A DNA stretch of 64,000 nt from Sulfuricellaceae bacterium (lineage in GTDB: Bacteria > Pseudomonadota > Gammaproteobacteria > Burkholderiales > UBA9220), in contig JBFXHL010000001.1 in the NCBI GenBank assembly GCA_050177075.1, forward strand, positions 3,349 to 67,348. The letters run 5' to 3'. Below are positions 7,313 through 9,979 of the stretch, piece after piece (positions within the stretch are counted from its first letter, which is position 1; the number at the start of each line of letters is the position of its first letter). The notes below the pieces were generated by a model. The model did not search any database. It was not told where the DNA came from and saw only the letters and a list, made by a program, of their open reading frames with translations. Both the position numbers and the translations under genes were made by a program.

Positions 7313-9979
7313 ATGAAAAGCAGCGAAATTCGCCAGAAATTCCTCGACTACTTCGCCTCCAAAGGCCACACCATCGTCGCCTCCAGCTCCCTGGTGCCCC
7401 ACGAGGACCCCACGCTCCTCTTCACCAACGCCGGGATGAACCAGTTCAAGGACGTGTTCCTGGGCTTCGACAAGCGCCCCTACACCCGCGCCGCCACGTC
7501 CCAGAAGTGCGTCCGCGCCGGCGGCAAGCACAACGACCTGGAAAACGTCGGCTACACCGCCCGCCACCACACCTTCTTCGAAATGCTGGGCAACTTCAGC
7601 TTCGGCGACTACTTCAAGCGCGACGCCATCCACTACGCCTGGGAACTGCTCACCGAGGTGTTCAAGCTGCCGAAAGAGCGCCTGATGGTGACCGTCTACG
7701 CCGAGGACGACGAAGCCTACGACATCTGGACCAAGGAAATCGGCGTCCCCGCCGACAAGGTGGTGCGCATCGGCGACAACAAGGGCGCTCGCTACGCCTC
7801 CGACAACTTCTGGATGATGGGCGACACCGGTCCCTGCGGCCCCTGCACCGAGATTTTCTACGACCACGGCGCCCACATCCCCGGCGGCCCCCCCGGCTCC
7901 CCGGACGAGGACGGCGACCGCTTCATCGAAATCTGGAACAACGTCTTCATGCAGTACAACCGGGACGAGCAGGGCGTCATGCACCCACTGCCCAAGCCCA
8001 GCGTGGACACCGGCATGGGTCTGGAGCGCATCTCCGCCGTGCTCCAGGGCGTGCATTCCAACTACGAGATCGACCTGTTCCGGGCCCTGATCAAGGCCGC
8101 CGCTCGGGAGACCAATTGTAAGGACCTGGACAGCCCGTCCCTGAAAGTGCTGGCCGACCACATCCGCGCCTGCTCCTTCCTCGTCGCCGACGGCGTCATC
8201 CCCGGCAACGAGGGCCGCGGCTACGTGTTGCGCCGCATCATCCGCCGCGCCATCCGCCACGGTTACAAGCTGGGCGCCCGGGGCCCCTTCTTCCACAAGC
8301 TGGTGGCCGACTTGGTGGCCGAAATGGGCGACGCCTACCCCGAGTTGAAGCAGAACCAGGCCCGGGTCACCGAAGTGCTGAAGATGGAGGAAGAGCGCTT
8401 CTTCGAGACCATCGAGCACGGCATGGGCATCCTGGAAGCGGAACTGGCCAGCCTGGCCAAATCCGGCGCCAAGCTGTTCAACGGCGACACCGCCTTCAAG
8501 CTCCACGACACCTACGGCTTCCCCCTCGACCTCACCGCCGACATGTGCCGCGAGCACGGCGTGACGGTGGACGTGGCCGGCTTCGACGCCGCCATGGCCC
8601 GCCAGCAGGAGCAATCCCGGGCAGCCGGCAAGTTCAAGATGGCCGCCGCCCTGGAATACAGCGGCCAGCCCACTACCTTCCACGGCTACGAAAAGCTGGA
8701 AGTGGCCGGCGCCAAGATCACCGCCCTCTACGTGGACGGCACCCCGGTCAACGAAATGCAGGCCGGCCAGCAGGGCGTGGTGGTGCTGGACAACACCCCC
8801 TTCTACGCCGAATCCGGCGGCCAGGTGGGCGACTCCGGCCTCATTACCCTCCCCTCCCCCGCAGGCGGGGGAGGCTCTGCACAAGGGGCTGGGGGAGAGG
8901 GACTTTTTGAGGTGGAAGACACCCAGAAAATCCAGGCTGACGTCTTCGGCCACCACGGCGTCCTCAAGTCCGGCAGCCTCAAGGTGGGTGATGCCGTCAC
9001 CGCCCGCGTGGACGGCGAGCGCCGCGCCCGCACCCAGCGCAACCACTCCGTTACCCACCTGATGCACAAGGCCCTGCGGGAAGTGCTGGGCGGCCACGTG
9101 CAGCAGAAAGGCTCCCTGGTGGACCCGGACAAGACCCGCTTCGACTTCGCCCACAACGCCCCCGTTACGCCGGAGGAAATCCGCCGGATCGAGGCCCTGG
9201 TCAACGCCGAAATCCTCGCCAACGCCGTCACCGACGCCTCGGTGATGTCCATCGAGAACGCCCAGAAAACCGGCGCCATGATGCTCTTCGGCGAGAAATA
9301 TGGCGACGAGGTGCGAGTGCTGACCATCGGCTCCTCCAAGGAACTGTGCGGCGGCACCCACGTGGCCCGCACCGGCGACATCGGCCTGTTCAAGATCGTC
9401 ATGGAAGGCGGCGTCGCCGCCGGCGTGCGCCGCATCGAGGCGGTCACCGGCGACAACGCCCTGGCCTATGTCCAGGAACGGGAAGCCCTGCTGACTCAGG
9501 CCGCCGGCGCCTTCAAGGCCCCGGTGCAGGAGCTGCCGGGCAAGATCGCCCAGATGCAGGACCAGGTGAAGGCCCTGGAAAAGGAACTGGCCAAGCTCAA
9601 GTCCAAGCTCGCCGGAAGCCAAAGCGACGACCTGGCCGATCAGGCGGTGGACGTCAACGGCGCCAAGGTCCTGGCCGCCACCCTGGAAGGGGCCGACGCC
9701 AAAACCCTGCGGGAAACCCTGGACAAGCTGAAGGACAAGCTCAAGAGCGCCGCCGTGGTGCTGGCCAGCGTGGCCGACGGCAAGGTGACCCTCATCGCCG
9801 GCGTCACCGCCGACCTGACCGCCAAGCTAAAAGCCGGCGAGTTGGTGAACTTCGTGGCCCAGCAGGTGGGCGGCAAGGGCGGCGGCCGCCCCGACATGGC
9901 CCAGGCGGGCGGCACCCAGCCGGAGAATCTGCCCAAAGCCCTGGAATCCGTGGCCGAGTGGGTCAAGGGCAAGCTGTAA
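7313..9979 (+). CDS. alaS: Alanine--tRNA ligase
   Basis: 888 aa, collinear with E. coli AlaRS, including [22 protein letters not shown] and the C-terminal [15 protein letters not shown]. Confidence 0.98.
8847..8903 (+). repeat. Solo copy of the GC-rich hairpin repeat (same family as the ygiQ cassette TIRs), translated in-frame within alaS
   Basis: CCTCCCCCG-CAGG-CGGGGGAGG hairpin (8853-8874) followed by ...GGGGCTGGGGGAGAGGGA. Encodes [18 protein letters not shown]. Confidence 0.8.

Follow-up and report, generated by a model that had tools for sequence, protein, structure and literature searches.

A GC-rich palindromic repeat shared with a DUF559 nuclease cassette occupies an editing-domain loop of alanyl-tRNA synthetase in a Sulfuricellaceae bacterium

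The alanyl-tRNA synthetase gene (alaS) of a Sulfuricellaceae bacterium, a sulfur-oxidising betaproteobacterium, located in the 64,000-nucleotide stretch of DNA analysed here (the window), carries within its reading frame a copy of a palindromic repeat that also forms the arms of a DUF559 nuclease cassette in the ygiQ gene of the same stretch. In our view the extra DNA in alaS is probably a single-arm, nuclease-less derivative of a GC-rich palindromic mobile element, which the synthetase (AlaRS) tolerates as a disordered loop on its surface. In its full form this element would consist of a DUF559 (Vsr-like) endonuclease gene between inverted copies of the arm. The arm may have entered, or recombined into, the turn between two beta-strands, replacing five native codons there, and would be read as a Pro/Ser/Gly-rich disordered surface loop which the essential enzyme carries as a near-neutral passenger. 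Its mobility could have been provided by the DUF559 nuclease in trans or by an earlier full cassette, and the route may have been either the collapse of a full cassette or the independent insertion of an arm, followed by short-tract recombination between lineages. A first-pass annotation of this DNA had read the segment as a translated copy of the terminal inverted repeat of the ygiQ cassette, and the evidence laid out below supports that interpretation as essentially right.

The alaS gene and its insert

The protein encoded by alaS has the full AlaRS architecture, with the Pfam domains tRNA-synt_2c at residues 5-570, tRNA_SAD at 667-709 and DHHA1 at 784-885. An exact look-up returned an identical protein, MGD9786328.1, named alanine--tRNA ligase, from a Sulfuricellaceae metagenome-assembled genome (MAG) of the order Nitrosomonadales, whereas the organism had initially been placed in Rhodocyclales. 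The protein is present unchanged in two independent assemblies, from NCBI and from JGI. Its conserved blocks ESGGQVGD and VEDTQK are separated by 26 residues, compared with 12 in the E. coli enzyme (KGELKGANFSFA); the first-pass annotation had given both lengths and the E. coli residues correctly, and the open reading frame (ORF) runs intact through the extra DNA over all 888 codons, as had been proposed.

The repeat-derived DNA reads CTCCCCTCCCCCGCAGGCGGGGGAGG-CTCTGCACAA-GGGGCTGGGGGAGAGGGA and includes the hairpin CCTCCCCCG-CAGG-CGGGGGAGG (Table 1); in the minimum-free-energy fold the C-rich block can instead pair with the distal G-rich block. The hairpin had been described as stable. The RNA of positions 8835-8915 (81 nt) does fold at -44.3 kcal/mol, but this exceeds what is expected from composition only modestly (z = -1.96 against composition-matched shuffles); the GC content of the repeat is 76%, compared with 66% for the window. 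A scan of the whole window against Rfam found no family and no intron at the repeat; its sole match in the window is a tRNA gene at 3471-3543 on the minus strand.

The hairpin is followed by extra nucleotides (CTCTGCACAAGG), which had been noticed before and estimated at about 10; the alignment gives 12. They have no counterpart in any other copy examined, including the ygiQ arms and the alaS arms of the related loci L085 and L087. Relative to empty alleles the net gain is 14 residues (42 nt), while the repeat-derived DNA amounts to 54 nt, and the arm takes the place of 15 native nucleotides coding for A-A/S-G-A-Q. The residues L-I-T at the junction are also found in the distant filled allele L088, and at the ygiQ and pgpA copies, too, the arm is preceded by a Thr codon. 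The insertion is not a clean one: five host codons are lost at alaS, and comparison with empty sites reveals no target-site duplication at either alaS or pgpA. Classical transposition is for these reasons not supported.

Copies of the arm within the window

The extra DNA in alaS is a copy of the ygiQ cassette arm, as the first-pass annotation had claimed. The alaS hairpin pattern, with up to three mismatches allowed, has seven matches in the window and none in 100 shuffles, and the G-rich block GGGGCTGGGGGAGAGGGA likewise has seven matches where 0.31 are expected. In a multiple alignment with the ygiQ arms and the copy at 12990-13029, the alaS copy corresponds to the ygiQ-arm unit plus the 12 additional nucleotides; it can equally be described as the canonical 42-nt arm of L085 plus the same 12 nt. 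Altogether, five arms lie at three loci (alaS, pgpA and ygiQ) within 64 kb, against an expectation of zero.

The pgpA copy resides in a longer insert (Table 1), of which 12990-13029 is the repeat part, and the pgpA ORF (12504-13073) has the Pfam PgpA domain. In the related loci L083 and L090 this insert is absent and thiL and pgpA overlap. The pgpA insert also holds a separate small palindrome, GTCAC-ATG-GTGAC. All three host genes are intact, in-frame, Pfam-complete ORFs, and the arm is read in one frame common to all of them, (T)L(S)PSPAGGGG. None of the six reading frames of the canonical arm is interrupted by a stop codon, and since the arm is also a whole number of codons long, it would simply be translated.

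Table 1. Features of the alaS, pgpA and ygiQ loci in the window, and loop peptides of the five filled AlaRS clusters.
Feature	Position	Strand	Description
alaS	7313-9979	+	Alanine--tRNA ligase, 888 aa, host gene; ORF and Pfam
Junction codons before alaS arm	8840-8848	+	CTC ATT ACC (L-I-T); relatives read x-L-E
Repeat-derived alaS insert	8849-8902	+	54 nt, 18 residues; C-rich block, G-rich block, second G-rich block; aligns with ygiQ arms
alaS hairpin	8853-8874	+	CCTCCCCCG-CAGG-CGGGGGAGG; 9-bp stem, 4-nt loop
Extra nucleotides	8875-8886	+	CTCTGCACAAGG, 12 nt; adds SAQG; only in the window alaS allele
Second G-rich block of alaS arm	8885-8902	+	GGGGCTGGGGGAGAGGGA; one mismatch to copies at 42606, 43016 and 43076
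pgpA copy	12976-13053	-	78-nt, 26-codon in-frame insert after pgpA codon 7, right behind the thiL stop codon
ygiQ	41288-43843	-	Radical SAM protein, 851 aa; entire DUF559 cassette in frame; Radical_SAM_N Pfam match split by DUF559 at residues 290-392
Left ygiQ cassette arm	42583-42642	+	60 nt; inverted repeat I1; 92% complementary to 43057-43116
DUF559 domain between ygiQ arms	42668-42976	-	Vsr-like PD-(D/E)XK nuclease; PF04480, E = 2.8e-39, residues 290-392
Inner partial tandem arm	43015-43047	-	Adjoins the DUF559 coding start
Right (outer) ygiQ cassette arm	43057-43116	-	60 nt, 20 residues; frame and orientation same as alaS copy
Loop peptide, P0121 (window)			21 residues
Loop peptide, P0122 (L081)			15 residues; 93% identical to window AlaRS; different repeat variant, LPSPSGRGAGGEG
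Loop peptide, P0131 (L085)			14 residues
Loop peptide, P0133 (L087)			LPSPASGGGAGGEG
Loop peptide, P0143 (L088)			LIT-LPSPTEGGAGGEGKTSSGEG

Filled and empty alleles of the alaS loop

In order to place the insert among relatives, we considered the 120 closest AlaRS clusters from a search with the full-length protein; a search with a 210-residue fragment gave only short fragments (at most 366 residues and 70% identity), which are uninformative on close relatives. Relatives whose AlaRS is 94-95% identical to that of the window have an empty loop, GALEAAGAQF. P0124 and P0125 (95% and 94% identical, respectively, with 93.9% identity at the DNA level), belong to the same 90% protein cluster as the window protein and read GDTGALEAAGAQFAVEDTQK. 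The insert is also missing from E. coli, from all 80 related genomes retrieved at 60-77% identity, and from the alaS genes of L083, L084 and L090. In the empty allele the codons are GGC GTG CTG GAA / GCG TCC GGC GCC CAG / TTC GCG, and it is the middle 15 nt that are swapped for 39-54 nt or more of arm in the filled alleles; the empty site contains ...GGCGTGCTGGAAGCGTCCGGCGCCCAGTTCGCG.... The empty loop (A-x-G-A-Q) is common to the outgroups, and the empty form is thus the ancestral state. The alaS insert was acquired after the split from the 94%-identical relatives, and its presence or absence is polymorphic. It is clearly neither a conserved feature of related synthetases nor a stretch lacking nucleotide similarity to the ygiQ arm.

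The idea that the insert might be specific to one strain holds only in part: it is absent from the nearest and from the 80 distant relatives, but variants of it occupy this loop in four further lineages. Five AlaRS clusters, including that of the window, have an insert in the same alignment columns (Table 1), and for the lineages other than that of the window the filled alleles were obtained from ENA, NCBI, Logan and JGI. Every variant keeps the GC hairpin, with the variation concentrated in the hairpin loop; the 42-nt arm of L085, CTCCCCTCCCCCGCAGGCGGGGGAGGGGCCGGGGGAGAGGGA, is unlike the right ygiQ arm at two positions. The gene neighborhood of P0143 is wholly different. In a tree computed without the loop, the nearest relative of each filled allele is empty (P0124/5, P0132, P0135-9 and P0154). 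Since the filled alleles are scattered among empty relatives, the repeat was either gained several times or gained once and then spread by recombination. The junction GAA/CTCCCC is identical in three filled alleles, and L-I-T before the arm is common to the two others.

Among six close alleles, 63 sites back the whole-gene tree, none of which lies between alignment columns 1446 and 1687, and the sites common to filled alleles alone are confined to the loop itself; any exchanged tract must therefore be short, less than ~240 nt. A long co-conversion tract around the insert was rejected on the same grounds, as the discordance is limited to the loop. A 130-nt bin upstream is closer to the filled allele of L081 (96.9% vs 93.1%), but this corresponds to 4 vs 9 differences, which are too few to count. 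A metagenome scan for the alaS anchor followed by a pyrimidine run, a pattern that does match on the fetched loci, returned no matches in a collection that is incomplete, and this is no evidence of absence.

A different kind of insertion was observed in the AlaRS of a Sulfurimicrobium MAG (P0211, 993 aa), which has ~120 additional residues after consensus position ~382-386, in the tRNA-recognition region. This segment is unrelated and resembles neither the repeat nor DUF559.

Position in the AlaRS structure

In a sequence alignment the insert falls opposite a gap in the A. fulgidus AlaRS structure 3WQY, between ...GYLI-ANG and GKFEVVDV. In an AlphaFold model of the window protein, strands at residues 509-512 and 531-540 border a coil at 513-530, and the predicted local distance difference test score (pLDDT) is below 50 at residues 517-528 and ~80-93 on either side. 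The model was built on 44 relatives, and because the alignment is shallow its catalytic domain is poor; with a mean pLDDT of 67.8 it was used only for the barrel, where it is good. The low-pLDDT coil between two strands points to the extra residues being a disordered excursion, as predicted by the model, at a beta-hairpin turn of the barrel that precedes the editing core. The position in a surface loop, which the first-pass annotation had placed at the start of the barrel, is thereby borne out as a barrel loop, but one that lies between two strands inside the barrel and not at its start.

The arm and DUF559 cassettes in other genomes

We conducted a blastn-short census of the arm over ~1.6 Mb of related loci and found it almost exclusively at the alaS site. 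The sole extra copy is a hairpin of the same family, CCCCTCGCCCCCCGGGAGAGGG, at L085 2318-2339 between recA and recX, on a contig that also has a filled alaS. The 26-nt hairpin was found in at least 120 metagenome contigs, and the peptide LPSPAGG(G/R)G-GGEG in Pfam-validated hosts that include a P-type ATPase, two HsdM proteins, an Eco57I-like methylase, a dTDP-glucose-dehydratase-like protein, a PFL-like enzyme and Lpd. HsdM proteins at L111 4905-6689 and L115 1131-3002 (both on the minus strand) contain two to four in-frame arms each, and the P-type ATPase at L187 1852-5517 (plus strand) has a two-arm insert, resembling a miniature inverted-repeat transposable element (MITE), in its nucleotide-binding domain. 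In-frame copies are a general phenomenon.

The cassette itself is widespread. DUF559 lies in frame in 38 of the top 120 YgiQ clusters, among them that of the isolate Sulfurimicrobium lacus, and the aligned sequences show the order arm-DUF559-arm at the same linker, while the ygiQ genes of close relatives are without it. In P0272 (L213) cassette-type flanks at the same ygiQ site enclose a single hairpin, SPSPAGGGG, and judged by these flanks this ygiQ is a collapsed cassette. Similarly, the alaS insert of L088 holds GGEGKT, identical to the ygiQ arm/nuclease junction GGEGKTR, followed by SS and by GEG, which resembles the far-arm end AGEG; this allele also looks like a collapsed cassette.

The JGI contig L212, which comes from the same population and encodes the identical AlaRS, lacks the ygiQ cassette. 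Compared with the window it shows no mismatch over 9.5 kb and then, immediately 5' of the cassette, 78 mismatches within ~950 nt, a divergent patch (~8%) at window 43177-44150 and L212 9700-10666; 3' of the cassette there is again at most one mismatch for ~950 nt. Such a pattern would be characteristic of homologous recombination that imported or removed the cassette, with strain-mosaic assembly as a caveat. A second block of ~93% identity extends from the 3' part of ygiQ onward downstream (window 38896-41600, L212 11750-14501) and shows that the assemblies are mosaic relative to each other here as well.

A search with the DUF559 domain gives 26,867 representatives at E <= 1e-3. From the best 150 matches, 20 long proteins were scanned, and all 20 have DUF559 in one ORF with host domains, mostly in an internal position. 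Their hosts are HsdS (10 proteins), Eco57I/MmeI-like proteins (three), N6_N4 methylases (three), and one each of Type ISP, DUF7008, an Mfd-like fragment and a methionyl-tRNA synthetase (P0463); the DUF559 domains in P0372-P0490 are 55-65% identical to that of the window. Arm-type peptides adjoin DUF559 in all eight host sequences that we read, on both sides in HsdS, MmeI-like, Type ISP and methylase proteins and on the upstream side in the contig-truncated methionyl-tRNA synthetase. The LPSPSGRGAGGEG peptide of one filled alaS allele is also found in the DUF559 proteins P0403, P0428 and P0380. Some of the DUF559-methylase fusions could be functional rather than selfish.

The one studied member of the DUF559 family behaves like a Vsr repair nuclease (PMC12907096), and a survey of programmed inversions flagged DUF559 genes statistically for having inverted repeats at their flanks (PMC9881135). 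Our literature search found no publication on the arms, their translation or in-frame DUF559 cassettes, and a search for the repeat peptides gave no match.

Origin of the alaS copy

A nuclease-less, single-arm copy of a mobile element thus seems to us the probable nature of the alaS segment. Several points weigh against this explanation. That the insert is translated and that AlaRS functions normally is inferred from the intact ORF; alaS has neither a clean insertion boundary nor a target-site duplication, with five codons missing; and a full DUF559 cassette is found in no alaS gene among the 120 closest AlaRS clusters. Additionally, DUF559 is detectable within 400 nt of only 8 of 126 metagenomic hairpins, so that most copies are without an adjacent nuclease, no transposition or homing activity of DUF559 has been documented, and the AlphaFold model is poor overall, though good in the barrel. 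As to the way in which the arm reached the loop, we give about equal weight to the decay of a cassette and to the insertion of a single arm filtered by selection.

In the case of decay, the alaS loop would be a specific homing site of an in-frame DUF559 cassette, and the solo arm would be what was left after deletion of the nuclease. Homing endonuclease genes cycle through invasion, decay, loss and re-invasion. The same alaS site is filled in five diverged lineages, each with empty close relatives, and it lies five codons past an ultra-conserved 12-residue block, the type of target favoured by homing enzymes. The L088 allele reads as an upstream arm, KT and a downstream-arm remnant, and at ygiQ full, collapsed and empty alleles all exist, the cassette there sitting at the end of a ~950-nt patch with ~8% divergence, outside which the background is 100% identical. 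The clade of Vsr and DUF559 also includes a proven homing endonuclease, I-Bth0305I (PMC3424549; PMC3239194). The full cassette, however, is seen in no alaS allele of the 120 clusters, the Sulfuricellaceae alleles consist of one arm and not of two fused arms, and the tract of filled-only sites is confined to the loop (less than ~240 nt). The empty sites of alaS, pgpA and ygiQ are without sequence similarity, and no shared target motif is evident among them. We regard a homing scar as a possibility that is somewhat doubtful.

Alternatively, the arm may be hairpin DNA of a kind similar to MITEs or to repetitive extragenic palindromic (REP) elements, which is moved by a trans-acting enzyme and lands semi-randomly, so that in-frame, tolerated copies survive. 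Recurrence at the alaS loop would then reflect permissiveness together with short-tract recombination and not targeting. Most metagenome hairpins are indeed distant from any DUF559, single arms are present in many unrelated proteins, and the same survivorship logic has been published for intragenic REPs, including those in tRNA synthetase genes (PMC3733652). On the other hand, three alleles with an identical GAA/CTCCCC junction and two with L-I-T are unlikely for random landing; there is no GTAG/CGTC tag and no target-site duplication, nor is there a linked RAYT-type transposase, and the sole enzyme between arms in the window is DUF559. Independent movement of the arm can be put forward only tentatively.

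A broader proposition, on which we place modest expectations, is that an undescribed class of selfish DUF559 element, which needs no intron or intein, integrates at many sites, the alaS loop being one of them. The arms would act twice, as DNA hairpins that aid recombination and collapse and as Pro/Gly-rich flexible linkers in the protein; the whole element would sit in frame in YgiQ, HsdS, MmeI-like proteins, the methionyl-tRNA synthetase and AlaRS, and would decay to solo arms. Should this hold, part of the very large DUF559 family would acquire a role, and the LPSPxGxGxGGEG-type peptides that recur in many bacterial proteins would be explained.

Selection of the Gly/Pro-rich loop because it improves AlaRS, for instance in the way the editing domain handles tRNA, with an incidental likeness to the ygiQ arm, is improbable. 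The insert is kept in frame in five lineages and the beta-barrel is part of the editing domain, but the distribution is patchy and not clade-like, the closest relatives being without the insert; unrelated proteins such as PgpA, YgiQ, ATPases and methylases share this DNA and peptide, the model predicts disorder for the loop, and its length and sequence vary freely between alleles. Least credible of all is an artefact of metagenome mis-assembly or a chance low-complexity stretch: the window is a MAG contig and the repeat is richer in GC (76% vs 66%), but the identical protein is present in two independent assemblies, the architecture recurs in four other lineages drawn from four data sources, nothing interrupts the reading frame, and seven matches stand against none in shuffles.

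Whichever route brought the arm to alaS, a single-arm copy in the loop means that an essential, conserved aminoacyl-tRNA synthetase tolerates an 18-residue insert, predicted to be disordered, at a defined turn of its editing-domain barrel. Filled and empty alleles at 94-95% identity offer a ready-made permissive site for the engineering of AlaRS, and one loop occupied in five lineages by different repeat variants is a clean case for distinguishing targeting from selective filtering. A common, unnamed peptide and DNA repeat of environmental bacteria is linked here to DUF559 cassettes read in frame inside host proteins. In annotation, inserts of this kind make proteins longer and may pass for domain fusions.

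Comparison with known systems

Rickettsia palindromic elements (RPEs; Ogata et al. 2000, as summarised in PMC10969869) are in-frame repeats of ~150 bp in unrelated genes. As far as that summary describes them, they resemble the arm in being palindromic, multi-copy DNA in frame within unrelated genes, housekeeping genes included, in coding for a peptide compatible with the host fold, and in being polymorphic for presence and absence. The arm shares with them its multiple copies, reading in frame and position in a loop, and was set apart from RPE-1 to RPE-10 by size and host: the RPEs in that account are ~150 bp long and belong to the AT-rich genomes of Rickettsia, whereas the arm is 39-54 nt long, has 76% GC and is found in free-living Betaproteobacteria and many metagenomes. 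The arm of the window also doubles as the terminal repeat of a DUF559 nuclease cassette, which is a further difference.

Intragenic GTAG/CGTC REPs (Di Nocera et al. 2013, PMC3733652) add 7-30 residues to proteins, and their hosts include the genes for glycyl- and isoleucyl-tRNA synthetases. The first-pass annotation had called such a palindrome in a synthetase gene unusual, which in view of these published cases was an overstatement. Both kinds of repeat are short hairpins that are translated inside ORFs, and tolerance of the REPs has been ascribed to linkers and loops (PMC3733652); with 22-26 nt and a stem of 9-11 bp, the hairpin of the arm also falls within the 20-40 bp stem-loop typical of REPs. 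However, no GTAG or CGTC tag is found on either strand at the alaS copy (flanks ...ATTACC/CTCCCC and GAGGGA/CTTTTT) or at the ygiQ and pgpA copies, and membership of the REP/RAYT system was rejected for that reason. The stem of the arm is instead built of a C-run and a G-run with an extra G-rich block, the arms at all three window loci lie in frame within genes whereas most REPs are extragenic, and the associated enzyme is DUF559 where that of REPs is the RAYT tyrosine transposase. With the search confined to the window, DUF559 is the only gene found between arms.

Inteins share with the alaS insert the in-frame position in a conserved region of an essential gene. The insert has 18 residues, compared with more than 130 for the Hint domain of inteins; it starts with Leu and ends with Gly, followed by Leu, and has no N-terminal Cys, Ser or Thr and no C-terminal His-Asn plus nucleophile. 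Lacking these junction residues, it cannot splice, and the intein reading was rejected on both size and junctions.

Homing genes of the Vsr-like (EDxHD) type, such as I-Bth0305I (PMC3239194; Dassa et al. 2009, PMC2677866), belong to the same PD-(D/E)XK clade as DUF559 (PMC3424549). They have further parallels here in that diverged hosts sporadically carry the element at one exact position of a conserved gene and in a ygiQ cassette with a divergent tract at its flank. Known members reside in group I introns or inteins, which remove themselves, whereas the arms and the nuclease considered here would simply be translated. The alaS copy is also without a nuclease ORF, the ygiQ cassette alone having DUF559.

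Finally, the system is comparable to MITEs, in which a full element exists alongside shorter derivatives that keep its terminal repeats. The longer, enzyme-encoding element with the same ends is present as arm-DUF559-arm in ygiQ, and the two-arm insert in the L187 P-type ATPase has the form of a shorter derivative. The alaS copy differs in consisting of one arm and not of a pair of terminal repeats and in lacking a target-site duplication, and DUF559 is not known to be a transposase. In-frame repeats in essential genes are of a kind already known, and the link to DUF559 is the newer part. What the alaS case adds to the systems above is the recurrent occupancy of a single loop, together with its connection to an apparently undescribed family of in-frame DUF559 cassettes.

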